IMG/VR virus record: IMGVR_UViG_2718217860_000003 | Length of the DNA: 35,499 bases | Origin: a virus | Taxonomy: Duplodnaviria; Heunggongvirae; Uroviricota; Caudoviricetes | Strand: one strand, 5' to 3' | In this document: in pieces, positions 6,360 to 34,215 of the stretch | Position numbering within the stretch: position 1 is the stretch's first letter | How the letters are laid out: each line of letters opens with the position of its first letter | Notes under the pieces: model-generated | Told to the model about the DNA's origin: nothing | Databases searched by the model: none | The model's input: only the letters and a program-made list of their open reading frames with translations | Made by a program: the position numbers and the translations under genes

Positions 6360-6587
6360 ATGTTTAAATCAGACGTAATTAATTTTTACGGTACGAAAGC
6401 CAAAGTAGCGAAAGCTGCTGGCGTTGACCCATCTGCTGTTTCTCAATGGCAAGAGCTAGTTCCTGAAGGTCGCGCGATGCGTCTACAGGAGGCATCTGGC
6501 GGCGAGCTTCTGTATGATCCCAAGGTTTATGACGAATATCGTAAGACGAAGCGGGCGGGGCGGTTGAACAATGAAAATCACTCCTGA
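6360..6587 (+). CDS. dicC: DicC-like Cro-type regulator
   Basis: 75-aa product from the internal ATG (MFKSDVINFYGTKAKVAKAAGV...GRAMRLQEASGGELLYDPKVYDEYRKTKRAGRLNNENHS) with GGAGG upstream; divergent from dicA. Confidence 0.8.
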   Translation: MFKSDVINFYGTKAKVAKAAGVDPSAVSQWQELVPEGRAMRLQEASGGELLYDPKVYDEYRKTKRAGRLNNENHS

Positions 6588-7092
6588 ACAGGCTCGTGAG
6601 GCTCTGGATGCCTGGATATGTCGACCAGGAATGACACAGGAGCAGGCGACGATATTAATCACTGAAGCATTCTGGGCTTTGAAAGAGCGCCCGAACATCG
6701 ATGTTCAGCGTGTCACAGATGAAGGTGGCGCGGTTGATCAGCGAGCGCTTGGCGTTAATCGAGTGAAGATATTCGAACGCTGGAAGGCTATCGACACCAG
6801 GGATAAGCGTGAAAAGTTCACGGCGCTAGTGCCTGCAATTATGGAGGCTATCCGGATTAATGATTTCAGGTTGTATCGTGAAATTAGTGACGGAAAAAGC
6901 ATCACGTACATGATCGCCGGGTTAAACAAAGAATATGGCGATGTGGTGGAGTCCGGACTGCTTTTTGCTGATCCTGCCGTAGTGGATCGTGAAACTGACG
7001 AACTTATAGAAAAAGCAATTGCTTTCAAACTTGCGTATCGACAGCAATACCAACAAAAAGCTGGATGGAATTATGAGCCTTCTTTTTGCTGA
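6571..7092 (+). CDS. Hypothetical early protein in the CII position (possibly a YdaT-family regulatory/toxin-like protein)
   Basis: 173-aa ORF overlapping the dicC stop and the start of the O-like gene. The family assignment is from memory only. Confidence 0.6.
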   Translation: MKITPEQAREALDAWICRPGMTQEQATILITEAFWALKERPNIDVQRVTDEGGAVDQRALGVNRVKIFERWKAIDTRDKREKFTALVPAIMEAIRINDFRLYREISDGKSITYMIAGLNKEYGDVVESGLLFADPAVVDRETDELIEKAIAFKLAYRQQYQQKAGWNYEPSFC

Positions 7093-8038
7093 ACGCCCAC
7101 TGGTTATAAACACACAGCTTGCGATGAAGATTGGCTTAAATGAAGCCATTGTGTTGCAGCAGTTGCATTACTGGTTGAGAGATACCAATTCCGGCATGGA
7201 ATGTGATGGTGTTCGCTGGATTTACAACACAACGGAACAATGGCTGGAACAGTTCCCATTCTGGTCAGAGTCAACGTTAAAGCGCGCGTTTGCAAGTCTG
7301 AAAACGCTGGGGCTCTTGCGTTGTGAAAAGCTCAATAAATCAAAGCGCGATATGACCAATTTCTACACGATTAACTATGGGAGCGAGCTTTTAGATGATG
7401 GCAAATTGAGCGAATCCATCGGTTCAAAATGCGCCGCTCCATCAGGTCAAAATGACACGATGGAAGAGGTCAAAATGAAACGCTCCATTGGTTCAAAACG
7501 ACCCAATGTCATCGGGTCAAAATGGCCCGATGATCCTACAGAGAATACAACAGAGATTACTACAGAGAATAAAAACACTTTTCGTCCGGAAGCTTCGCAA
7601 CCGGACCCGCAGACGGCTGAACAGGATTTTTTAATCTGGCACCCTGGCGCAGTTGTGTTTAGTGCGAAAAAACGCCAGTGGGGTAGCCAGGAGGATCTGG
7701 CGTGTGCGCAGTGGATATGGGGGCGGATCGTGGGTCTCTACGAACAGGCCGCCAGTGATGATGGCGAGATCATGCGACCAAAAGAGCCTAACTGGACTGT
7801 CTGGGCCAATGATGTGCGCACAATGCGGATGCTGGATGGCAGAAGCCACAGACAAATTTGTGAAATGTTTGGTCGGGTACAGCGGGATCCGTTCTGGGTA
7901 AAAAACATCATGAGCCCGTCAAAGCTCCGCGAAAAATGGGACGAACTGGTCATCCGCCTGGGGCGTTCACCTGTACAGCGTTGTGTTAATCATATTTCTG
8001 AACCGGATACAGAAATTCCGCCTGGTTTCAGAGGATAA
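7073..8038 (+). CDS. Replication initiation protein (lambda O-like replisome organiser) with internal iterons
   Basis: N-terminal region resembles phage replication organiser N-domains; the gene contains five approximately 23-bp-spaced direct repeats (iterons). Start placed at ATG 7073 (MSLLFAERP...); the track ORF begins at an upstream TTG. Confidence 0.75.
   Translation: MSLLFAERPLVINTQLAMKIGLNEAIVLQQLHYWLRDTNSGMECDGVRWIYNTTEQWLEQFPFWSESTLKRAFASLKTLGLLRCEKLNKSKRDMTNFYTINYGSELLDDGKLSESIGSKCAAPSGQNDTMEEVKMKRSIGSKRPNVIGSKWPDDPTENTTEITTENKNTFRPEASQPDPQTAEQDFLIWHPGAVVFSAKKRQWGSQEDLACAQWIWGRIVGLYEQAASDDGEIMRPKEPNWTVWANDVRTMRMLDGRSHRQICEMFGRVQRDPFWVKNIMSPSKLREKWDELVIRLGRSPVQRCVNHISEPDTEIPPGFRG
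7415..7525. repeat. Iteron array (putative phage replication origin) inside the O-like gene
   Basis: Direct repeats tccatcGGTTCAAAATG / tccatcaGGTCAAAATG / GAGGTCAAAATG / tccattGGTTCAAAACG / tcatcgGGTCAAAATG starting near 7415, 7438, 7461, 7484 and 7509 (spacing about 23 bp). Confidence 0.7.
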
Positions 8039-8078: not shown

Positions 8079-8501
8079 GTGGCAAAAGTTTTTACACAAG
8101 AAGAGCGGGAAAAAATTAAAGGGCAGGTGGTGGAACTCGTGCGCCAGAGCGGTCGTGAGACGTTACGGCAACTGGAAGTCAAGACAGGTGCGACAAGATA
8201 TCTGATGAGCGTTCTCGCAAGAGAGCTGGTTGCCAGCGGCGATGTATACAACTCTGGTTACGGGTTATTCCCGTCTGAACAGGCGCGTAAGGACTGGCAA
8301 AATGCCCGTAAAAAGCTCTCAAGGGCAAAGCTGAAGGAACCATCTGCGGTTGATCCGGACCTTATCTGGTCATTACCTGACGGAGAAATACGTCGCTACG
8401 ACAGGCGTCAGAACATAATCTGTCGCGAGTGCCGGAAGAGTGAAGTTATGCAGCGCATACTAGCATTCTATCAGGGAAATGCTCGATATTTATTGAAGTG
8501 A
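8079..8501 (+). CDS. Hypothetical protein (replication-module associated), GTG start
   Basis: 140-aa ORF with RBS-like TAAGGGGGA upstream of GTG; basic, Cys-containing C-terminus. No family recognised. Confidence 0.55.
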   Translation: MAKVFTQEEREKIKGQVVELVRQSGRETLRQLEVKTGATRYLMSVLARELVASGDVYNSGYGLFPSEQARKDWQNARKKLSRAKLKEPSAVDPDLIWSLPDGEIRRYDRRQNIICRECRKSEVMQRILAFYQGNARYLLK

Positions 8502-8753
8502 TGAGATTAAAGTTTATTAGTTCAGATATTGATTGGCTCTTTTGTGGAGTAGGGTAGAGTTAGTGTGTTTGTCTGCTTGGTGCCAGCAGCGGATATGTTT
8601 AACAACAGAAAGCATTCAGCATGGTTAGTGGATTTGCAAAGTGGATTAGGATTTGAGAAACTTTGATGAAGTTGTAAAGCTTGTTTCTATAAAAATAGAA
8701 ATTTAACTAATAGTTAAACACACCTCCAGCTTCATTGAAAAGGATTATTAGCT

Positions 8754-9653
8754 ATGATTGATCCACTTATTAGAAACTTACAGAGTGATATTGCACTACT
8801 CCAGCTTTATATCGCGCAACGCAAACAGGCAGGCTTTCATGACATGGAAAGAATAATTGAGTCATTGACCATCTTTATGTTTCGCGCGCTGAAAATGGGT
8901 GAACTGGTAAACATGAATCAGATTAAAGTTAATTTTCCCGCCATTGATTTAGCTGATAATAAAAACATGATAGCAGTTCAAGTTACTACGAATGCAAGTC
9001 CAGCAAAAATTAAAAAAACTATCGAATCTTTTGAGGAAGCAAATGAAATAGGAGAGAGTCTGAAAGATAAATACTCTACTTTATATATTTTTGGTTTTTG
9101 TAAAGCCTCAAGATACCTAACTCCAAGTTATTGTAAAATAATCGACCCCAGCTATTTCGTGAATGAACTTTGCGATAAAGCAGATGAAGATATGGTCCAG
9201 GATATGATTGACGCCATTCGACGCCATCATGATTATACATCATTACATCCATGGAGTGATAAAGATTCACTCGAAATTATACTCAATATTATTAATCGCA
9301 ATGCAATAAAACATCGGATGAGTTGCGAAGGCAGTCTGTCTGATATGCTCACTGGTTTAAAAGAAATTAATGAAGTAATTACAAAAGGAACAATTCAACG
9401 TAAGCAACGTTCAAAATCGATATCTGACTTCAAAGATCAAAGCATGGTGAAATTTATGAGAGGTGTAATGGATGATTTGTCTGTTATTCAAGCCATAGTG
9501 AACAAATCTAAAGTTAACCAAGGTGATATGGTTTATATAAGCCATGAAGATATGATTAATATTGATAAATTAAAAGCTAAAATAGCAAGTGATTCATCAG
9601 AGATTGCAAGGCTAAATAATATTGATATAACACTAAATGTTGTTGATTTATAA
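8754..9653 (+). CDS. Hypothetical protein encoded in an AT-rich accessory island (candidate defence/abortive-infection-type protein)
   Basis: 299-aa ORF in a visibly AT-rich block; no confident family match. Convergent with the membrane protein/methyltransferase operon. Confidence 0.7.
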   Translation: MIDPLIRNLQSDIALLQLYIAQRKQAGFHDMERIIESLTIFMFRALKMGELVNMNQIKVNFPAIDLADNKNMIAVQVTTNASPAKIKKTIESFEEANEIGESLKDKYSTLYIFGFCKASRYLTPSYCKIIDPSYFVNELCDKADEDMVQDMIDAIRRHHDYTSLHPWSDKDSLEIILNIINRNAIKHRMSCEGSLSDMLTGLKEINEVITKGTIQRKQRSKSISDFKDQSMVKFMRGVMDDLSVIQAIVNKSKVNQGDMVYISHEDMINIDKLKAKIASDSSEIARLNNIDITLNVVDL

Positions 9654-9967
9654 TTGTCGATTTAGCAAAACAGAGAATGCTTTGAAAGTTTCACCGAGAA
9701 ATATTTATTGTGAACCTCCTTATTGTTTATCGACTTTTACTCTCCGCTCATTGCAGTACTGTCGGAGAAGGCTACTATGTACAAGAAGCAGCTAACATAA
9801 GCGAGCATCACTATTGATATTAGGAAGAGTATATAAAAACTTCATGCTGAACCTTACAAAAGTAGGTAAACCGGCAATGGCCTAAGTGGCAGGGTCATGT
9901 TGATCCGGCACTGCCGAGCTAATAATTAACAAGCAAATCACTCTTTCTAATAATTTGTTGAAATAAA

Positions 9968-10627
9968 CTAAATATGTATATGTTTACCAACAACCACATA
10001 TGAACTACCTGCTTTGCTCCATGATTTTATTATTTCTAAATTATTATCTGAGCATATTTTACTTACAGTATCCACATCTAATAAACCATAGTAGAAAGCA
10101 TTACGAGAGTTTTGGTATATATACCCATGCAAATGTTTAATACCGCTCTCGTACCTCTTGAAATAAGAACTTTTGTATTGATTGACAATCAGTGCTTCAC
10201 CATCACTCTTTAATAATTCTCTAATCGCACTGAGGACTTTGTGAATTGTGGATTCACATGGAATTGCGGAAAGCACGTTTGCGCAAAGTATGAAATCATA
10301 ATGATTTGTTATTTTATCTATATTTTCATAAGAAACAATATTAGCATTCTTATAGTTATTTATCACGTAATCTGGAATCGTGGTTTGTACACCTCTGATA
10401 ATTTGCACTCTTTCTAGTTGTCTTCTGGAATCTAAAAATGTCACAGTTTCAAATTTATTTACTAATTGTTCTGAATATCTAAGTTTTCCACATCCAAAAT
10501 CAAGGGCATTGCCATTTTTATTAGTGCTTTCAATCTGTTTACAGAGATAGTTAGATGGCATAGTGTGCGGTTTCGCTGCATTTTCTGAACGTATGTTTAT
10601 TCCATTTATTTTGTAATTCAAAATCAA
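9968..10627 (-). CDS. Class I SAM-dependent methyltransferase (not a recognisable DNA methyltransferase)
   Basis: 219-aa ORF with SAM-binding motif I (ALDFGCGKLRYSEQL), an acidic post-I residue (VTFLDSRRQ) and a motif II-like segment (DFILCANVLSAIP). No DPPY/NPPY or PCQ motifs. Confidence 0.75.
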   Translation of the reverse strand: MILNYKINGINIRSENAAKPHTMPSNYLCKQIESTNKNGNALDFGCGKLRYSEQLVNKFETVTFLDSRRQLERVQIIRGVQTTIPDYVINNYKNANIVSYENIDKITNHYDFILCANVLSAIPCESTIHKVLSAIRELLKSDGEALIVNQYKSSYFKRYESGIKHLHGYIYQNSRNAFYYGLLDVDTVSKICSDNNLEIIKSWSKAGSSYVVVGKHIHI

Positions 10628-10633
10628 CCTCGT

Positions 10634-11341
10634 TTAAAAAATATTGTTATTGTTAAAGAATTCTTTTATTTTGCTATCAGGTATTTGTCTTACTTGGCTT
10701 TCTGTTCTTGGTTTAACTGATGCTATGAAAATAAGGAAGTCAAATGCGACAAGAGAAATAATCCACAACCAAAGATTAATTAAAGAGCCAGTAACAGAGA
10801 ATATATTTGTTAATTTGGCGATACTTATTATTAAAATAGTAACAAATGCGATTACTGTATGTTCAAAGAAAACCCAAAAGTAATAAACTTTGTTCCAGAA
10901 AAGTTCAACGTAATGTTTGTCTTTTAACTCTTTAACTTCTGGGTAATACAGTTTACTCATTACCTTGTGAGATTCATCAGTAGTTAATTTTCTCGTAACG
11001 CCTGCAATTTTTGCTAATGGTTTAATAATTAAATGACTATCCCACATCTTCCTTATTCCAATAATTTTTGCTACATTATTATGTAGATCTAAAGCTCCAC
11101 TAATTACTGACCAAAAAACTGAAGATGCAATTGGTAATATGCCAAAGGTTAATATCCATTTAATAAATTCCTCGTAGTCTTTAACGGGGGGGATATACTT
11201 GGCATTAATGCCAACCAATGGCATGTAGCCATAAATGACTAATGATAGGTAAAATATAAATGTAGTAATAAAAGTCGCCTTATGGAGCATAGGCAACATT
11301 TCATTATAACTCTTTGGTGGTTCTAACATTTTACTCTCCAA
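10634..11341 (-). CDS. Integral membrane protein (about 4 predicted TM helices), function unknown; forms an operon with the downstream methyltransferase
   Basis: 235-aa ORF with several long hydrophobic stretches; its stop lies 6 bp from the methyltransferase start on the same strand. Confidence 0.7.
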   Translation of the reverse strand: MESKMLEPPKSYNEMLPMLHKATFITTFIFYLSLVIYGYMPLVGINAKYIPPVKDYEEFIKWILTFGILPIASSVFWSVISGALDLHNNVAKIIGIRKMWDSHLIIKPLAKIAGVTRKLTTDESHKVMSKLYYPEVKELKDKHYVELFWNKVYYFWVFFEHTVIAFVTILIISIAKLTNIFSVTGSLINLWLWIISLVAFDFLIFIASVKPRTESQVRQIPDSKIKEFFNNNNIF

Positions 11342-12014
11342 ACATTCAAAAAAAAGCTAATCTTCTATAATAACGAAATTCAGCTGGCACAATTAAAGAT
11401 TAATTGCCACCAATTTCTTGATTTTATAATTTTATCTAAATGTTTTTGATTAATCTAGTCCTAAAAGAAACCTACTGCATAAATATTTATGCTGATGACC
11501 CACTCCCTGTTCGTTAACACATAGCAACGTTAGTAATGCATCCTAAGTGATCAATATTTTTGCTAGCTTCATCTGCTCGCTCAAAGGGAACTATAATGTT
11601 GGCTTGCGTGTGACTTGGCATGTTTAAAGAAGTGCTGGTGGTGACTGGTTGCTGTTTTCCATTTCCACAGAACAAAATCATAGAAACTATACCCAGTAGT
11701 TGTATTGAATCACTGACGAGACAGCCTCATATTTATCAGGACTGGTGTACGTCCAATACAGGAGGTTGTGGTGCTGGTTCTCAAATGTGCGCTGGCTATT
11801 GCTGCTGTAATGGCAATTTATTGTCTTGCTGTTGTTCTTATGGATCACCTTTCTGATTGATTTCATATTGGCGAGGTAACGGTAGTTAAGTAGAATTGCT
11901 GCGGGTGCTTGAGGCTATCTGCCTCGGGCATCAACACCAAAGGCAGATAGAGAAAAGCCCCAGTTAACATTACGCGTCCGGCAAGACGCTTAACATTAAT
12001 CTGAGGCCATATCT

Positions 12015-15439: not shown

Positions 15440-15515
15440 GGTCCTTTAGCTCAGTGGTGAGAGCGAGCGACTCATAATCGCCAGGTCGCTGGTTCAAATC
15501 CAGCAAGGGCCACCA
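15440..15515 (+). tRNA. tRNA with CAU anticodon (ileX/ileZ-type tRNA-Ile2 if lysidine-modified; reads as Met by anticodon alone)
   Basis: Cloverleaf: acceptor GGTCCTT/AAGGGCC, D-arm GCTCAGTGGTGAGAGC, anticodon loop CTCATAA, T-arm GGTTCAAATCC, 3' ACCA. One A-C mismatch at the base of the anticodon stem. Confidence 0.8.
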
Positions 15516-15621
15516 TCACAAACCGCCATGAGCTTATCAGGAAGAGCAGACGACACGATAACAGGGTTGTTGGTGCGGGGGGGGGGGCGGGTCCCCGATG
15601 GCGGTCCATTATCGGTATTCA

Positions 15622-15698
15622 GCGTTGTTAGCTCAGCCGGACAGAGCAATTGCCTTCTAAGCAATCGGTCACTGGTTCGAATCCAGTACAGCGCGCCA
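15622..15698 (+). tRNA. tRNA-Arg (UCU anticodon)
   Basis: Acceptor GCGTTGT/ACAGCGC, D-arm AGCTCAGCCGGACAGAGC, anticodon loop CTTCTAA, T-arm GGTTCGAATCC, 3' GCCA. Confidence 0.8.
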
Positions 15699-16695: not shown

Positions 16696-17124
16696 ATGGG
16701 TTTTCGTAGCGCATCAATTCTTACGTTGATTATTAGTGGGATTATTATCGGGTGCACTGATGCTGTATCGACAAATTATCATGACCGTACATCATATTAC
16801 TCCGATAAAGCAATAGAGACACAGTATGTGAGTTCATCTGAACGTACTTCTGATGTTAGTGAGGATATCCGTCTGTATGCCCATCAAATCAAGAGCGCCA
16901 TCGAAAAACAGTTCGGGGATGCGAGTAAGTATTCAGGAAAAGAGTGTACACTGAGAATGCATATGGCCCCGAATGGCCTTCTACTGGAGGTTAAAAGAGA
17001 AAGTGGAGACCTCGATTTATGTCGTGAAGCGATGAATGCGATAAAGAATGCTGATATACCTGCCCCCCCTTCGCCGGAAGTATATAAAGTATTTCAAAAT
17101 GGGGTGCTGGATTTTAAACCCTGA
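16696..17124 (+). CDS. Lipoprotein with a TolA C-terminal (domain III)-like domain
   Basis: 142-aa ORF; lipobox LIISGIIIGC; C-terminal segment (YAHQIKSAIEKQFGDASKYSGKECTLRMHMAPNGLLLEVKRESGDLDLCREAMNAIKNADIPAPPSPEVYKVFQNGVLDFKP) closely parallels the E. coli TolA domain III sequence as recalled. Confidence 0.8.
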   Translation: MGFRSASILTLIISGIIIGCTDAVSTNYHDRTSYYSDKAIETQYVSSSERTSDVSEDIRLYAHQIKSAIEKQFGDASKYSGKECTLRMHMAPNGLLLEVKRESGDLDLCREAMNAIKNADIPAPPSPEVYKVFQNGVLDFKP

Positions 17125-17274: not shown

Positions 17275-17670
17275 GTGGGATTAAAGAAAATCGTTATGTT
17301 GACTTTTTGGGTCGGTTTTGTTGCGGGATGCACACCTTTACACCCTTCAGATTGCCACAAAACTACTGCTACAGGTAGTTGCAGTTCAGGACGCTGGGAT
17401 GATCAGGATGAATGGGGGGCGCAAGCGCGGGGAATCAGAGCTGCAATTAATGCCAAACTTGATGAGCCGCATAACTGGAAAGGGAAAATATGCAGGTTGC
17501 ATATGGAATTCTCTCAGGATGGCACGGCGTTAAAAATATCTACCAGTAACGGTGATAAAGCCTATTGCGAAGCGATAAAGTCCGCAGCTCATAAAGCCAA
17601 ATTTCCGGCCTTCAACAATCCGAAAGTCTACAGAGATTTTCAGAAATCTGGCTTTGACATGCGAGGTTAG
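17275..17670 (+). CDS. Second, divergent lipoprotein with a TolA domain III-like C-terminus (paralogue of the upstream gene)
   Basis: 131-aa ORF; lipobox VGFVAGC; shares KxCxLHM...G..L...........C.A...A.......P....VY..FQ spacing with the upstream protein and TolA-III. Confidence 0.7.
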   Translation: MGLKKIVMLTFWVGFVAGCTPLHPSDCHKTTATGSCSSGRWDDQDEWGAQARGIRAAINAKLDEPHNWKGKICRLHMEFSQDGTALKISTSNGDKAYCEAIKSAAHKAKFPAFNNPKVYRDFQKSGFDMRG

Positions 17671-18141: not shown

Positions 18142-18486
18142 ATGACTCAAAAATATGAACTGATTGTGAAAGGGATCCGCAATTTTGAGAATAAAGTTAC
18201 GGTAACTTTAGCGTTACGGGACAAAGAACGCTTTGACGGTGAAATTTTTGACCTGGACATCTCGCTGGACCGTGTTGAAGGTGCCGCGCTGGAGTTTTAT
18301 GAGGCAGCAGCCAGAAGGAGCATCAGACAGGTCTTCCTGGATGTTGCTGCCGGGTTATGTGAAGGGGATGAGCTGTCGCCGGAAAAGCGCCCCATAATTT
18401 TAGAGGCGCAGAATGTGTGGATAACCTACAAAGGAAAGCTACCGGGAAGAATTACTGGTTCTCTGAAGACTCCGCCGAAATGGTAA
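18142..18486 (+). CDS. Hypothetical protein inserted between holin and endolysin
   Basis: 114-aa ORF starting 5 bp after the holin stop. Confidence 0.55.
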   Translation: MTQKYELIVKGIRNFENKVTVTLALRDKERFDGEIFDLDISLDRVEGAALEFYEAAARRSIRQVFLDVAAGLCEGDELSPEKRPIILEAQNVWITYKGKLPGRITGSLKTPPKW

Positions 18487-18724
18487 TTTCACCAGCATAT
18501 TTTTCTTCCAGTAATACCGCCAGCCACTTGAAAGAATTTTGTTGTTGCTGGGACCATTTGGGGTTGAGTGATTCAAGCTGGAGCGATGCCAGTGTTGGTT
18601 GCATTTGTTCCTTGGGAATTGAGAATGCCAGATATGAAAATGCGACAGTAAGGGCATTTACATCATCCCGAAGCTTGGAAATGCAGTCGAGCAACTCCTG
18701 TAGAGAAATGGTGCTATTGTCCAT
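18452..18724 (-). CDS. Hypothetical small protein on the opposite strand within the lysis cassette
   Basis: 90-aa product from ATG 18724 (MDNSTISLQELLD...) with AGAGAGGA RBS 6 nt upstream; convergent with the upstream plus-strand gene. Confidence 0.45.
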   Translation of the reverse strand: MDNSTISLQELLDCISKLRDDVNALTVAFSYLAFSIPKEQMQPTLASLQLESLNPKWSQQQQNSFKWLAVLLEEKYAGEITISAESSENQ

Positions 18725-18829
18725 AAACAATCCTCTCTATTGTATTTAACTATTCCTTGCCTGATTCAACAGGCCGGGACAGATAAACATATCCAGGGTT
18801 CAGAAACCGATAAATCCTGATAAATATCC

Positions 18830-19372
18830 ATGAACGTAAAAATCAGATACGGCCTGTCGGCTGCCGTTCTGGCACTGATTGCCGTCCGTGCGCCTGCGCC
18901 TGATATTCTCGACCAGTTTCTGAATGAAAAAGAAGGTAACCACACAACGGCATACCGCGATGGTTCCGGCATCTGGACCATCTGTCGGGGTGCCACGGTG
19001 GTGGATGGAAAACCCGTTTTTCCCGGTATGAAACTGTCGAAGGAAAAATGCGACCAGGTTAACGCCATTGAACGGGATAAGGCGCTGGCATGGGTGGAGC
19101 GCAATATTAAAGTGCCACTGACCGAACCACAGAAAGCGGGTATAGCGTCATTTTGTCCCTATAACATTGGCCCCGGTAAGTGTTTCCCGTCGACGTTTTA
19201 TAAGCGGCTGAATGCCGATGATCGTAAGGGGGCATGCGAGGCGATTCGCTGGTGGATAAAAGATGGTGGGCGTGATTGCCGCCTGACAAAAGGGCAGAAG
19301 AATGGCTGTTATGGGCAGGTCGAGCGGCGCGATCAGGAAAGCGCACTGGCGTGCTGGGGGCTGGAGCAATGA
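18830..19372 (+). CDS. Endolysin (RrrD-like lysozyme with N-terminal hydrophobic signal/SAR-like segment)
   Basis: 180-aa ORF with catalytic E-x8-D-x5-T (EGNHTTAYRDGSGIWT) and hydrophobic N-terminus (YGLSAAVLALIAV). Confidence 0.85.
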   Translation: MNVKIRYGLSAAVLALIAVRAPAPDILDQFLNEKEGNHTTAYRDGSGIWTICRGATVVDGKPVFPGMKLSKEKCDQVNAIERDKALAWVERNIKVPLTEPQKAGIASFCPYNIGPGKCFPSTFYKRLNADDRKGACEAIRWWIKDGGRDCRLTKGQKNGCYGQVERRDQESALACWGLEQ

Positions 19373-19905
19373 AAATTAATCCGGATCTTATAGGCGTTGT
19401 CGTTATTGCTGGCCTTTCGGTCGCTCTCGTCAAGAGTTGCTCTCACGCCAGTAATCTTCAGAGCGATAACGACGTTCTGCGAAGTGACAACTCTATGCTG
19501 GGGCAGGTAATCGCCACCCAGGCATTCAACTTCAATCGATTCAATCAGGTTGCAGAACATGCCAACAGTCTTAACTCCCTGATCGACACCAGCACCGAAA
19601 AAACCGTAATCGAATACCGGGAGATTCTCCGCCGTGAAAAAACCTGTGATCTGCCTGTTCCTGCTGATATCGCTGGTGGGTTGCTCGAATACACGTACCG
19701 TTTACGTGCCAGCGCCATGCACACCGATACCGGCAGACCTAATGAAGCCTATGATCGTACCGCTACCACCAGCTCAATGACCTACTGCCAAGCTGTCTTG
19801 TGGATTAAGCCGCTACTGGCGTTGATAGAAAAAGGAAATAATAATTTTTCGAGTATTCGTGAAATTGATGAGTTGCGTTACAGACCATCTGAGCATGGCC
19901 AGTAA
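19369..19905 (+). CDS. Rz-like inner-membrane spanin subunit (i-spanin)
   Basis: Start ATG overlaps the endolysin stop (ATGA); N-terminal TM helix (LIGVVVIAGLSVALV) followed by a charged periplasmic domain. Confidence 0.75.
   Translation: MKINPDLIGVVVIAGLSVALVKSCSHASNLQSDNDVLRSDNSMLGQVIATQAFNFNRFNQVAEHANSLNSLIDTSTEKTVIEYREILRREKTCDLPVPADIAGGLLEYTYRLRASAMHTDTGRPNEAYDRTATTSSMTYCQAVLWIKPLLALIEKGNNNFSSIREIDELRYRPSEHGQ
19634..19780 (+). CDS. Rz1-like outer-membrane lipoprotein spanin subunit (o-spanin), embedded in the +1 frame of Rz
   Basis: Not in the ORF track. Manual translation from GTG 19634: MKKPVICLFLLISLVGCSNTRTVYVPAPCTPIPADLMKPMIVPLPPAQ*, with a lipobox (LVGC) and proline-rich tail. 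Confidence 0.65.
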   Translation: MKKPVICLFLLISLVGCSNTRTVYVPAPCTPIPADLMKPMIVPLPPAQ

Positions 19906-20073
19906 GGTTGCAGGAAATTTAAAATCTGGCGATGAAATTTAATATTAGAAATTCATTGCCTAGTGAGATTAATAATGGGCATCCCTTTGTGACGATAAGC
20001 TTTAACACATTCACAAAGGGATATTTAATATAGGGTGGTTAATTCCCACTTGCTGTGGTGTTTAGGGGGTAAT

Positions 20074-20766
20074 TCAAATCTTATCTAACTCATTATAGGC
20101 TTCGATAATAAAAATTCTGATTTTAATAAGGCATGATTCAATGAAAGGAATTACTTCATGGTCATTCCCATGGAATCTTATTTTTTTCTCTTCGGTAATG
20201 ACTATGTTTAAAGGTACACCATTACCACTTCTTTGTAATTTCCCATTTTCGAAAGTAAAGTCTTCTAATTTTTTGCCATTGATGTGGTTGTTTTTAAAGA
20301 GAATTTTTGCTGAGCTTCCTGCTGTGATTAAACCAAAACCATCTACGCTCACACTTAGGTCTTTAACAGAACTCTCTTCTCTTAAGGGGATTGGTTGTCT
20401 GTGCTTTACTTCATTAGTGAGATTACACATCATTTCCAACCAAGATTCGCCAGTGTGATAATCCTGTATAGAAGTAAAAATTTTATATAATGGAGAAGAT
20501 GATGGTGGGTTTATTTTTAGCGTCTTTGAGAAAAATTTATCAATAAACTCTTTTTTTCCGTAAGGGAAATATATTTTGGGGCGCTCATCATTACTGCGTG
20601 GAGAAATATATTTATCATAGGTATCATTAGCGAGATACTCTAAGGAACTTCGTAAGTTTTCCAAAATAGCTTTGACTTTTACAGGCTTGATATGCTGTGT
20701 CTGTCTCATTATGCCAAGACTTTCTTCAACTTCTTGCAATAAGTCCAACGAGCCTTCTCTAGACAT
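20074..20766 (-). CDS. Hypothetical protein in an AT-rich moron between the lysis cassette and terminase
   Basis: 230-aa ORF in a visibly AT-rich segment, opposite strand to the flanking late genes; no family recognised. Confidence 0.65.
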   Translation of the reverse strand: MSREGSLDLLQEVEESLGIMRQTQHIKPVKVKAILENLRSSLEYLANDTYDKYISPRSNDERPKIYFPYGKKEFIDKFFSKTLKINPPSSSPLYKIFTSIQDYHTGESWLEMMCNLTNEVKHRQPIPLREESSVKDLSVSVDGFGLITAGSSAKILFKNNHINGKKLEDFTFENGKLQRSGNGVPLNIVITEEKKIRFHGNDHEVIPFIESCLIKIRIFIIEAYNELDKI

Positions 20767-21337
20767 ACAGGTAATTCTCCTTTATGAATTTTCAACATGT
20801 TATAACTAATAATATATTTATCATATAACTGTATGAATAAATTGTGAGATTAGTAATGCAAGTTTCTATCCATAGTGTTCTCTAAGTACCCGCTTCCATC
20901 ATGTTGTTACGGACGGTATGGCTAAAACAAAGCACCTGAAGTTAAACGTTCTGAACTTTATGCTCGTTGAGCATATGAATTATCTGTAACCCGATGCGCT
21001 GGTTGTGGTTCACATTGATGGTCGTAATCAGCAGCGGTGGTGCCTGATGGCATGCAACTTCTTACTTATAAAACTTCGTATGGAATTGTTGCCATAACGA
21101 GCCCAGCTTAGCAGTTTTTAATGGGTCCTCCCGGCAGTGTGTCCTGCCACGGGGCGGGAGCGTCGCGGAAAAAGGCTAGTTTTTGAAATTTCATTCGTCA
21201 TCACCACTACTTTAATATATTGATATTACAGTGGTTTTATTTTTATGGTGTCGATTTTGATTGTTTTTTGTTCATCACTAACACCGTTTGCCTAAAGTTG
21301 TTCGCAAGATGCATGTTTAAAACATTCTGGAGCGGGT

Positions 21338-21638
21338 ATGGATCGAGAGTTGAAAAATCTGACGCTGAATATCAGTCAACTGGCGGCACTGTCAGGTGTA
21401 CATCGCCAGACTGCTGCGGCAAGGCTGCAAAATCTACCCGTTGCAGGGGGGCATGAAAGCAACCTCAAGCTTTATCGGGTGGTTGATATTGTGTCGGCAT
21501 TTCTGGCATTGCCACCGCCGGTTGCAGAAGGCGAAATGGACGCGCATGAGCGCAAAGCCTGGTATCAGTCTGAACGTGAGCGTCTTAAGTTCGAACAGGA
21601 AACGGCACAACTCATTCCGGCCAGTGATGTCAGACGGG
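21338..21638 (+). CDS. Terminase small subunit (Nu1/NohA-like), 3'-truncated by the assembly gap
   Basis: N-terminal HTH-like segment (LNISQLAALSGVHRQTAAARL); the ORF runs into the N-run. Confidence 0.6.
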
Positions 21639-21738
21639 NNNNNNNNNNNNNNNNNNNNNNNNNNNNNNNNNNNNNNNNNNNNNNNNNNNNNNNNNNNNNN
21701 NNNNNNNNNNNNNNNNNNNNNNNNNNNNNNNNNNNNNN
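21639..21738. other. Assembly gap (100 N) between terminase and tail gene M
   Basis: Run of 100 ambiguous bases; terminase-large through tail gene H are absent from the window. Confidence 0.99.
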
Positions 21739-21765: not shown

Positions 21766-22095
21766 ATGGAGACGTTTCACTGGAAAGTGCGCCCGGATAT
21801 GAATGTGGTATCAGAGCCGAAAGTGGTGACAGTGAAGCTGGGCGATGGTTATGAACAGCGTCGTGTGGCGGGACTGAATAACCAGTTGTCGACTTACAGC
21901 GTGACGATACGTGTTCGTAAATGTGAACACCCATCTTTAAAAGCCTTTCTGGAACGGCACGGTGGCGTCCGCGCATTTCAGTGGACGCCACCTTATGACT
22001 GGAAGCCGATCAGGGTGGTTTGTCGTAAATGGTCGGCGAGCGTAGGGGCGCTGTGGGTAACCATAACGGCAGATTTTGAACAGGTCGTGGCATAG
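21766..22095 (+). CDS. M: Tail tip assembly protein M (lambda M-like)
   Basis: 109-aa ORF METFHWKVRPDMNVVSEPKVVTVKLGDGYEQR..., same length and pattern as lambda gpM. Confidence 0.9.
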   Translation: METFHWKVRPDMNVVSEPKVVTVKLGDGYEQRRVAGLNNQLSTYSVTIRVRKCEHPSLKAFLERHGGVRAFQWTPPYDWKPIRVVCRKWSASVGALWVTITADFEQVVA

Positions 22096-31900: not shown

Positions 31901-32481
31901 TGGCATTCAGAATGAGTGAACAACCACGGACCATAAAAATTTATAATCTGCTGGCCGGAACTAATGAATTTATTGGTGAAGGTGACGCATATATTCCGCC
32001 TCATACAGGTCTGCCAGCAAACAGTACCGATATTGCACCGCCAGATATTCCTGCTGGCTTTGTGGCTGTTTTCAACAGTGATGAGGCATCGTGGCATCTC
32101 GTTGAAGATCATCGGGGAAAAACCGTCTATGACGTGGCTTCCGGCGACGCGTTATTTATTTCTGAACTTGGCTCGTTACCGGAAAATGTCACCTGGTTAT
32201 CGCCGGAAGGGGAATATCAGAAGTGGAACGGCACAGCCTGGGTGAAGGATACGGAAGCAGAAAAACTGTTCCGGATCCGGGAGGCGGAAGAAACAAAAAA
32301 CAACCTGATGCAGGTAGCCAGTGAGCATATTGCGCCGCTTCAGGATGCTGCAGATCTGGAAATTGCAACGGAGGAAGAAATCTCGTTGCTGGAAGCCTGG
32401 AAGAAGTATCGGGTGTTGCTGAACCGTGTTAATACAACAACTGCACCGGATATTGAATGGCCAGTAGCACCTATAGGGTAA
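31900..32481 (+). CDS. tfa: Tail fibre assembly protein Tfa
   Basis: 193-aa ORF; start overlaps the stf stop (TAATG); conserved Tfa C-terminus ...[31 protein letters not shown]. Confidence 0.9.
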
Positions 32482-33070
32482 ATTCGTAATGATTACCTAA
32501 ATACGTTATTCTTTTGTTCAAAAAGTGATTTTTCTATAGGTAGGGAGTATGTTCTTGGATTAAGAATAAAAAATCGCCATGAAAGAGCTTCATGGCGAGT
32601 ACATAAACGTACAAAATATGATGAAAGTAGAGTGGCGTAAGCCACTATATTAAGATATGACAATAGCGAAGAAAAGTAAATAACATTTTATGGGCGTTTA
32701 ATTGTTAATTATAAAAACTAGAGTGCCCGATATTGTTTATCTTGCTTTAAAATAATGTACTCAAACCAAATTTTTGAGCTAAAAGCTCAAATAATATAAA
32801 TGCAATGATAATGTTTAATAAGACAATTAGCTTGCTTTGTATTTTCATTTCGGAATACTGTTAAGTAACTTTGATGACACTAACAATAGATCGGAATTTT
32901 CTTAGAGTCAATGGTCACTGTTTTTGCTTGCAAAGCAAATCTTTTTGGTGGTTATAAGTTTTCTTAATATAGTCACCTATGCAACTTGTTCCGTGTGGAG
33001 ATTAAAGGTTAAAATTTAATGCGAAGATGGAATTATAATATATTTTTTTATAATTAATTTAACCTTAACA

Positions 33071-33169
33071 TCGTTGCTGGCGGCATGGAAGAAATATCGG
33101 GTCTTGCTGATGTCGTGTTGGCACTTCCTTAGTGCGGTTATCGAATGGCCAGCTGTACCTGTGGGGTAA
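33071..33169 (+). pseudogene. Relic 3' fragment of a second tfa gene
   Basis: DNA homologous to the last 33 codons of tfa ([13 protein letters not shown]...IEWPAVPVG*), with no upstream reading frame. Confidence 0.7.
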
Positions 33170-33301
33170 AAACTTTATATGGGTGCTATTTTTATAATAG
33201 CTGGTAAAAACTGGCCGAACTGAAATTCACTGTTGATAAAAAAGATGTGTTTGAGTGTATGTCATTGTTTTCTTAATGGAATCCACTAGAATGCAGCGAA
33301 T

Positions 33302-33499
33302 TTAAGAAGGTGGGTTTTTATTGGAATATAAACTACAATAATGCTCAACTCGTTCGTAGAATTGTTTTTTCTTATTTTTTGGAATGCTAACCATTATATG
33401 CATTATGGGGGCGATACTTCCTGATAATTTACATGATGCATACATTGAAGCAATAAATTCAATATCATTGTCATCAAAGTTAAAGCTTTCTCCGTCCAT
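33302..33499 (-). CDS. Hypothetical small protein (uncertain)
   Basis: 65-aa ORF with AAGGA about 7 nt upstream of the ATG, in an AT-rich gene-poor segment. Confidence 0.3.
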   Translation of the reverse strand: MDGESFNFDDNDIEFIASMYASCKLSGSIAPIMHIMVSIPKNKKKQFYERVEHYCSLYSNKNPPS

Positions 33500-34215
33500 T
33501 TCAATTCCTTATGTGTTTGGCACAACTGATGCTGTATCCCATGAGAATTTATGCAAGTTGTTATGTTTGATTTGATATTGCAATGATAATTGTAGCTAAT
33601 TGTTTTCAATTGAGTGAAAGTTTATTTCGAGTGATTAAGTCGAAAAAAAAGATTTCTCACGGTTAGTAAGCGTATTAGGTTAGTATTCAGATATGAATGG
33701 TATTAATGACTAAATTTTCAATCATATATGGATTTTTATGCTGATGAAGATGTTTTATTTGGCGATTCGTCAAGCATCTTCACTTAAGTAATCGTATATT
33801 TTAAGAGTGCAAAAGAGAAAGGGACAACGTTGCTCGCACTCTGGATTAAATATAGGGTGTTGTTAAACTGCGTTGATACATAATTGTACCGGATATTGAG
33901 TGGTCTGAAGTCCCAGTCATTAAGTAATCGTTTCGTGATATGCCGCAGAAACGTTGTATGCAATAACGTTCTGCGGTTGGCTGATGCACTTTCGAGAGTG
34001 TATTGAATAATTTCAAGCCGTTATTGTTTTTACGCGTAACACCATGAAAAGATTGCTTATCTGTTGGGGTGTTTTTTGGGGCATATATGGGACAGAAATA
34101 GGCCACAGATAGATAGTAAGATCGAACTCAGGATGTTTTTGAAAAAATGTAACTATCTGAAAAAACCTAGAAAGCGCCAAGGAAACCACAGAATGAGAAA
34201 AAACATCTGTGAATT

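Follow-up and report, generated by a model that had tools for sequence, protein, structure and literature searches.

HepS (STM14_3211) of the Gifsy-1 prophage of Salmonella has been described as a 'HEPN Solo' abortive-infection anticodon nuclease (PMC13043305; PDB 9OIJ/9OIK). It is constitutively expressed from the prophage and works solo, without a partner. The protein forms an auto-inhibited tetramer, for which the tail-tip protein J of infecting siphoviruses is the activator, and it cuts tRNAs in their anticodon loops (PMC13043305). HepS is strain-specific and is missing from the LT2 Gifsy-1 record. Here, HepS and related systems are compared with the product of a 230-aa gene at positions 20074–20766 of IMGVR_UViG_2718217860_000003, a virus record (Caudoviricetes) of 35,499 nucleotides, the whole of which is called the window below. 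The window is a Qin/DLP12-like lambdoid prophage of Escherichia coli. The gene product is predicted to be a soluble cytoplasmic protein with a HEPN-type four-helix core, and a solo abortive-infection ribonuclease (RNase) working like HepS is its most likely function, which we put at slightly short of an even chance.

Several other described systems are relevant to the comparison. In HEPN domains in general, N, D or H usually follows the arginine of the motif, helix 2 has a conserved acidic residue near the motif, typically as Ex3[KR], and inserts occur between helices 2 and 3; the RNase activity is independent of metal and comes from a site composed by a dimer (PMC3710099). The archaeal Parep1/8 HEPN-T family 'lacks R but H is conserved', and other conserved basic residues have been proposed to compensate for the loss (PMC3710099). 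The HepT/MntA toxins of type II/VII toxin–antitoxin (TA) modules are represented by PDB entries 8xdj, 7ae2, 5yep, 4nqf and 1jog. The anti-phage HEPN toxins RnlA and LsoA (RNase LS) from E. coli each have several domains in about 350 aa, and their cognate antitoxins are RnlB and LsoB. Phage lambda carries bor as antisense cargo between Rz and cos, and this gene is expressed in lysogens.

The first-pass annotation of the window had placed a 230-aa ORF (open reading frame) on the minus strand between an Rz-like gene and the terminase, and this ORF is present exactly as described. The exact protein was found on 535 contigs, and its 90% cluster contains 345 members. Full-length homologs with identities of 44–96% occur in Enterobacter, Klebsiella, Citrobacter, Cronobacter, Raoultella and Atlantibacter. 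In the comparison with the homologs of 50–80% identity, the proportion of nonsynonymous differences (pN) was far smaller than that of synonymous differences (pS), and the ratio of the corresponding substitution rates, dN/dS, was 0.07–0.13 where dS was unsaturated. Decay by frameshift or loss of conservation in related prophages, which had been proposed as the check on the gene, was not observed, as the homologs are full length and the ratio is low. These results indicate that 20074–20766 is a real gene under purifying selection.

The protein had no match in Pfam, NCBIfam or PADLOC, and the comparison of 81 family members with Pfam (E up to 10) and PADLOC gave nothing consistent. It matches PHROG phrog_13652, of 'unknown function', from end to end. 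At E ≤ 1e-3, an exhaustive profile search detected the representatives of 1,013 clusters formed at 50% identity, of which 492 remained at E ≤ 1e-10; the close cluster representatives number 74. A second, word-indexed profile search retrieved 'hypothetical protein' entries only, none with a precomputed Pfam domain. Nearly all family members are standalone proteins of 220–250 aa, distributed over Proteobacteria, Bacteroidota, Deinococcales, bacteria of the candidate phyla radiation (CPR), Planctomycetota, Nitrospirae, archaea, and Bacillus plasmids.

The earlier remark that the ORF has no recognisable motifs holds for Pfam, NCBIfam and PADLOC, but the family has a sharp signature of its own. Over the 81 sequences, whose mean column identity is 17%, L42, P68 and H122 are invariant, and R39, S40, Y44, D48, F67, Y69, F79, Q101, W109, L110, N118 and K121 are at least 90% conserved; the string [T]N..KH is present in 208 of the 222 retrieved members. 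A literature search for the accession, the PHROG identifier or the sequence strings found no mention. The family is large, uncurated and unnamed so far, and its recognition is a new result.

The structure of the protein was modelled using AlphaFold2 with a 38-sequence alignment, which gave a mean predicted local distance difference test score (pLDDT) of 89.3 and a predicted template-modelling score (pTM) of 0.74. The predicted core consists of helices H1 (3–23), H2 (28–53), H3 (109–122) and H4 (205–227), with an insert at 54–108 between H2 and H3 and a beta insert at 128–198 between H3 and H4. The former insert is a loop with three short helices (the predicted helices include 72–82 and 92–98) and contains the conserved YFPY (66–69) and Q101. 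In this predicted model, the core forms the four-helix up-and-down bundle of two alpha-hairpins that characterizes HEPN domains. H3 closes with T117-N118-E-V-K121-H122, where the invariant H122 takes the position of the HEPN histidine at the end of the helix and N118 that of the residue following the arginine. On helix 2, K32, E36, R39/S40, E43/Y44 and D48 form a polar stripe with i+3/i+4 spacing, in which the order is [KR]x3E, not Ex3[KR]. H2 and H3 are the most conserved parts of the protein (about 1.8 bits), and variability is greatest in the beta insert (3.0 bits, 92 indel columns). A conserved catalytic core combined with a fast-evolving recognition module would be expected to give this pattern. 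The predicted HEPN-like fold with the non-canonical T-N-x-x-K-H at the canonical position and with a hypervariable beta insert is a new result of the modelling. The protein has a mass of 26.5 kDa and an acidic N-terminus (MSREGSLDLLQEVEE), and no signal peptide, lipobox or transmembrane segment was found in it. As a separate observation, the sole global structural match in the viral library BFVD was A0A514TZW7, a 275-aa protein (Foldseek E 1.3e-4, probability 1.0; template-modelling score 0.56; 10% identity).

The genomic surroundings of the homologs were compared for ten lineages with annotated contexts. The gene is located at the lysis–terminase junction of a lambdoid prophage in E. coli and of HK97-like prophages in Enterobacter and Raoultella, between DUF968 and the lysis/HNH/terminase block of an HK97-like prophage in Vibrio, at the edge of a Mu/P2-like prophage in Caballeronia, and in a prophage early region in Pseudomonas. 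It is found in an integrase/resolvase/Mrr island in Cupriavidus, in a cassette and transposon array in Oleispira, adjoining a DEAD/ResIII helicase in Shewanella, and inside an Opp-like ATP-binding cassette (ABC) transporter operon in Neisseria. Prophages thus account for six of the ten lineages, with at least four prophage architectures, and in all six the gene is antisense to the flanking phage genes. This recurrent antisense carriage in unrelated prophages is a new result.

When the neighbours within three genes were clustered across 47 family clusters (at least 60% identity), no neighbour family was common to more than three of the 47. Bulk Pfam and PADLOC scans of 149 neighbours gave a heterogeneous picture of housekeeping genes, PemK/Phd modules, fused AriAB, MzaA, a DRT reverse transcriptase, methyltransferases, and phage portal and GPA genes. 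In Neisseria and oral metagenomes (loci L006-L010, L063, L064, L069 and L072), a homolog of about 29% identity lies within an Opp/Dpp-like operon composed of two permeases, an AMP-binding enzyme, the homolog, and then a fused double ABC_tran ATPase. For the overlapping 515-aa ATPase of these loci, the role of a defence-type ABC/AAA_21 partner had been considered and was rejected, because the 515-aa protein is a duplicated ABC_tran with an oligo_HPY region beside two permeases, as in an Opp/Dpp-type transporter, and because the pairing is confined to one clade. In the Oleispira metagenome contigs (L105-L107), the homolog is surrounded by small ORFs, all on the same strand, together with DDE transposases, split RVT_1 genes, a gene of the beta-lactamase fold, and immunity modules of the Tae4/Tai4 and Imm33-like kinds; this array resembles an integron-like or polymorphic-toxin cassette array.

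The 230-aa protein resembles HepS in being solo prophage cargo with a predicted HEPN-type core and a beta element next to the active site. In contrast to HepS, it lacks the arginine and has a built-in beta domain, and it is unrelated in sequence, the two being set apart on the basis of the published description. Of the features that mark a HepS-type protein, the standalone gene without a conserved partner, often encoded in prophages, is found here, whereas homology to HepS and the canonical RX4-6H motif are not. Unlike the HepT/MntA toxins, the gene has no adjacent MNT antitoxin gene, and its product is without the RX4H arginine, carries the extra beta domain, and shows only 7–17% identity to those toxins with no similarity at the profile level; the multi-domain architecture and the cognate antitoxins of RnlA and LsoA also have no counterpart here. 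Parep1/8, compared by description, is alike in keeping the histidine without the arginine, and is an archaeal family with other partners (MNT, restriction endonuclease).

By analogy with HepS, the lysogen would express the gene from its own promoter and keep the product inactive. The variable beta domain, inserted directly after the putative catalytic histidine, would then sense a component of an infecting phage, upon which the HEPN-like site would cleave RNA (tRNA or mRNA); the cleavage would abort the infection and protect the lysogen population. The putative active site would consist of the polar face of helix 2 (K32, E36, R39, S40, E43, Y44 and D48), the YFPY loop, and N118-x-x-K121-H122, in which K121 or R39 could stand in for the missing arginine of R-N-x-x-x-H. 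The RNase activity, the sensing by the beta domain, and the defence phenotype are all assigned by analogy with HepS, and the resemblance of the predicted fold to HEPN RNase toxins makes the gene a good candidate for a one-gene anti-phage defence. A broader reading, in which the family represents unrecognised pan-prokaryotic one-protein immune sensor-effectors with a new HEPN site variant (T-N-x-x-K-H, with the lysine or the helix-2 arginine in place of the canonical arginine), a hypervariable beta domain serving as an internal phage-protein receptor that links recognition to activation in a single small polypeptide, and an antisense carriage that arms only the lysogen, is doubtful.

The following observations weigh against a HepS-like function. 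The canonical arginine is absent, since 168 of 208 members have T at the corresponding position and a single member has R; because the motif is only partly present, the family is classed as HEPN-like, not as a canonical HEPN member. The arginine is needed for activity in PrrC and KEN domains (PMC3710099), so that the protein could be non-catalytic. The connection to HEPN is likewise not seen at the sequence level: none of the 81 members matched a Pfam HEPN family, hhalign of the family against RnlA and LsoA gave a probability of <1%, and the family profile found nothing among the PDB sequences, where single-sequence and profile searches of the protein gave chance-level matches only. Foldseek found no significant match in the PDB. 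The proposed spatial clustering of the conserved residues is deduced from helix periodicity only. The protein is absent from the supplements of DefensePredictor and of the Vassallo E. coli pangenome functional selection, and PADLOC v2 has no model for it. Some homologs are also non-mobile, being located beside housekeeping genes or in the Neisseria-type operon, where the stop codon of the homolog overlaps the ATPase start by 4 nt and the two genes are apparently co-translated.

The missing arginine is a ground for regarding the protein as a non-catalytic HEPN-like regulator that binds RNA, nucleotide or protein, perhaps as an anti-defence decoy or inhibitor or as an MtlR-type repressor. HEPN families lacking the motif, such as NTase-fused HEPN and MtlR, do serve as binding domains or regulators (PMC3710099), and the homologs in metabolic or transport operons, of which the Neisseria overlap is an example, would suit such a role. 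However, H122, K121 and N118 are invariant or nearly so at 17% identity and, together with the polar stripe of H2, form the pattern of a catalytic site and not of a variable binding surface, and Parep1/8 offers the precedent of a retained histidine without the arginine (PMC3710099). The antisense orientation with a candidate promoter of its own in prophage late regions, moreover, suits cargo expressed in the lysogen, whereas anti-defence genes are usually expressed early in lytic growth. The non-catalytic reading is considered unlikely.

HEPN folds are typical of TA toxins, as the HepT/MNT and RnlA/LsoA matches illustrate, and the protein might serve as the toxin in a module that stabilises the prophage by addiction, with an antitoxin that is unrecognised (an antisense RNA, a tiny ORF or a host factor) and with an anti-phage activity that is incidental or absent. 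PemK and Phd genes are located near some homologs, and the 570-bp non-coding region upstream could conceal an RNA. In a search for an RNA antitoxin or a repeat array, however, no tandem repeats and no Rfam family were found in the flanks (19700–21640); the upstream region is accounted for by a decayed pseudogene and cos, there is no MNT gene, and no neighbour of any size is conserved across the 47 family clusters. The TA explanation is thus improbable.

The pseudogene just mentioned is the remnant of a divergent partner gene. In HK97-like prophages of the Enterobacter/Klebsiella type, the homolog is paired divergently with an intact 485-aa gene, whose product shows the GT-A glycosyltransferase hallmarks VVVIDDGS and LWDDDAWP and has no match in Pfam or PADLOC. 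In L002, this gene (6455-7912, minus) points the same way as the late operon and is located between the lysis and the HNH/terminase genes; the copies, which include those in L024, L025, L031, L033, L036, L040 and L041, are 70–100% conserved. In the window, the start ATG of the remnant at 20856 aligns with the start codon of the intact gene, and a stop follows after nine codons. Two frameshifted, stop-interrupted blocks then correspond to residues 21–56 (20915–21022) and 60–90 (21031–21123), and the similarity ends exactly at 21123. The first-pass description of a single ORF therefore holds in that 20074–20766 is the only long minus-strand ORF between the Rz-like gene and the terminase gene terS, but it overlooked this decayed plus-strand gene, which is a new result. 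The partner is also reduced to fragments in L026 and absent in Raoultella, and it is dispensable, because the homolog stays intact in both. The cassette is thus the relic of an AT-rich divergent two-gene unit, in which only the 230-aa gene is kept intact, and it records the decay of a two-gene cassette while one gene is retained.

These observations bear on the possibility that the 230-aa gene and the glycosyltransferase-like gene together make up a system, such as a modification-dependent module, and that the former is here an orphaned and possibly functionless survivor. The divergent pair is conserved in the Enterobacter/Klebsiella-type prophages with homologs of 53–81% identity (loci L002-5, L024, L025, L031, L033, L036, L040 and L041), and remnants of the partner adjoin the gene in L026 and in the window. 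On the other hand, in E. coli, Raoultella and all distant lineages, which have a decayed partner or none, the gene has stayed intact under purifying selection, and no locus beyond the enterobacterial clade carries the 485-aa gene. We accordingly give this possibility a low probability, and a HepS-like solo RNase is preferred to it.

The lysis–terminase junction had been proposed as a moron site, and the comparison of E. coli prophages bears this out. About 1,480 E. coli genomes have this cos/terS region over at least 80% of its length, and about 97 have the ORF region. In other E. coli prophages with the same cos/terS, the slot contains only a 50-aa ORF and spacer (empty), the Qin set cspI-ynfQ-ynfN-gnsB, or the two small ORFs of phage phi458. 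Homologs occupy the same junction, also in antisense, in the unrelated HK97-like prophages of Enterobacter, Raoultella and Vibrio. The right border of the cassette is at 21123, where the homology to mEp460/phi458-type phages begins abruptly. The ORF region is thus present or absent at a fixed slot and deviates in base composition, with a guanine plus cytosine (GC) fraction of 0.34 against 0.49–0.57 in the flanks, and the reading of the ORF as a functional accessory gene (moron) of a lambdoid prophage is supported. No homolog was encoded in the 50,697 deposited phage genomes searched by tblastn, even at the protein level. The ORF is convergent with the gene in the Rz position, which ends at 19905, and divergent from the DUF1441-type terS, which starts at 21338. 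The ends of the linear phage records of mEp460_4F5, cdtI and Tritos map to about 21147–21152, which suggests that cos lies there; in that case the ORF would lie at the extreme right end of the virion chromosome, like lambda bor.

The first-pass suggestion of a lysogenic-conversion or exclusion gene holds in part, as exclusion or defence is favoured by the HEPN-like fold and by the precedent of HepS. A Bor-like lysogenic-conversion factor at the cell surface (serum resistance, adhesion or envelope exclusion) would fit the AT-rich cargo and the antisense position between Rz and cos, but it is very improbable, because Bor is a small outer-membrane lipoprotein of unrelated fold, the present protein has an acidic N-terminus and none of the export signals, its confident model is a soluble helical bundle, and a Gram-negative surface role would make no sense for the family members in archaea, CPR bacteria and on Bacillus plasmids.

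The coordinates of the features are collected in Table 1. The two promoter candidates, with nine of 12 matches each, lie in the 90-bp divergent intergenic region and are partly conserved in an alignment of the enterobacterial homolog loci, and the number of such sites in the region is not above that in shuffled sequence. The inverted repeat lies in the gap that separates the ORF from the convergent Rz-like gene, 52 nt beyond the stop codon of the ORF; its hairpin is seen in the centroid structure (region z = −2.4) and is terminator-like, yet without a clean U tract. The regulation of its own that had been attributed to the gene is thus consistent with the Shine–Dalgarno sequence, the promoter-like hexamers and the hairpin, but promoter-like sites are no commoner here than in the shuffles. 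Two 15-nt direct repeats, GTGAGATTA[A/G]TAATG, at 19963–19977 and 20844–20858 (14 of 15 identical), flank the unit of hairpin, ORF and promoter; they are probably a coincidence, as AT-rich DNA of 1.5 kb should contain about one such pair by chance.

Table 1. Features of the lysis–terminase junction in the window.
Feature	Position	Strand	Remarks
230-aa protein-coding gene	20074..20766	minus	ATG start; RefSeq WP_000085746.1, 'hypothetical protein'
AT-rich cargo cassette (moron)	19906..21122	.	between Rz-like lysis gene and cos/terS; low GC
GT-A glycosyltransferase-like pseudogene remnant (codons 1 to ~90 of 485)	20856..21123	+	tblastn E = 2e-6
Shine–Dalgarno AAGGAG	20777..20782	minus	10 nt before ATG, read from sequence
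Two overlapping sigma-70-like promoter candidates	20809..20848	minus	CTCACA-17-TATGAT and TTCATA-17-TATTAT
Perfect 12-13-bp inverted repeat ATCCCTTTGTGA / TCACAAAGGGAT	19981..20022	minus	18-nt loop, 100% complementary
Last lysis-cassette gene, Rz/spanin position, no Pfam match	19369..19905	+	context, convergent with the ORF
Cos-proximal region and terS leader, common to mEp460-like phages	21123..21337	+	context
DUF1441-type small terminase subunit (terS), first ~100 codons	21338..21638	+	cut by scaffold gap

The GC fraction of the ORF is 0.339, with 0.309 at third codon positions (GC3), and that of the cassette 19906–21122 is 0.351, compared to 0.472 for the whole window, 0.488 for the lysis genes, 0.566 for the tail genes and 0.53 for terS. 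The region had been described as AT-rich from 19.9 to 21.3 kb; it is AT-rich, but the tract ends at about 20.95 kb, and the GC fraction is 0.43–0.53 from 21.1 kb onward. Equally AT-rich segments make up 9.8% of those of the same size, so that AT-richness is not peculiar to the ORF site. Other AT-rich islands are found at 8.4–11.8 kb and 32.4–34.0 kb. The former (8400–11800, GC 0.30–0.36) is flanked by the replication genes and hokD/Q, in the slot that HepS occupies in Gifsy-1, and contains genes at 8754–9653 (plus), 9968–10627 (minus) and 10634–11341 (minus). Their products include a SMEK_N-domain protein (Pfam 1.6e-22), which also matches the N-terminal part of PADLOC Aga_REase-PNTD1-PNTD2 (1.1e-20), a class I S-adenosylmethionine (SAM) methyltransferase, and a 235-aa protein without a match; this island may be another defence or cargo cassette. 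The latter island (32400–34000, GC about 0.33) follows the tail-fibre assembly gene and has ORFs of 40–86 aa, none of at least 100 aa.

The gene order of the prophage follows the annotation of the complete genome NZ_CP031134, one stretch of which is 100% identical. It runs from int, xis, exo, dicB/ydfABC, cI/cro-like genes, replication genes, hokD, rem, RusA, Q and tRNAs to essD, lysozyme, the Rz-like gene, the ORF, and terS. Exactly 100 N at 21639–21738 form a scaffold gap, which replaces about 12 kb present in NZ_CP031134: the rest of terS, terL, portal, a protease–capsid fusion, head–tail and tail genes, and the tape measure. Because of this gap, the window jumps from about codon 100 of terS directly to a gpM-like tail gene at 21766.

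Three further features lie between Q and the lysis genes or within the lysis cassette. A tRNA-Ile (about 15441–15516) and a tRNA-Arg (about 15622–15698), both on the plus strand and with coordinates derived from the L001 annotation at an offset of −101, are located directly downstream of the Q antiterminator. Two TolA-like genes (16696–17124 and 17275–17670, plus) between the Q/tRNA region and the holin are annotated in the matching genome as 'cell envelope integrity protein TolA' and 'TolA C-terminal domain-containing protein'; they are unusual cargo, and a relation to Tol-dependent phage or colicin entry could exist. An antisense 92-aa ORF at 18452–18730 (minus), between a YdfR-family gene and lysozyme, corresponds to the RefSeq hypothetical protein WP_000370545.1 and has no Pfam or PADLOC match.

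The present results document the Rz–cos junction of lambdoid prophages with a DUF1441-type terminase as an exchangeable cargo slot. Neither Pfam, NCBIfam and PADLOC nor two large E. coli defence screens detect the family found in this slot, so that current annotation would continue to miss it; its function is cheap to test, as the gene is small, standalone and from E. coli. If the proposed function is true, HEPN-type catalysis would work without its signature arginine, and the family would be a second, unrelated case of the 'solo HEPN' logic of prophage defence that was first described with HepS in 2026. About a thousand clusters now labelled 'hypothetical protein', in E. coli, Enterobacter, Klebsiella, Vibrio, Pseudomonas, Bacteroidota, CPR bacteria and archaea, would then gain a function.

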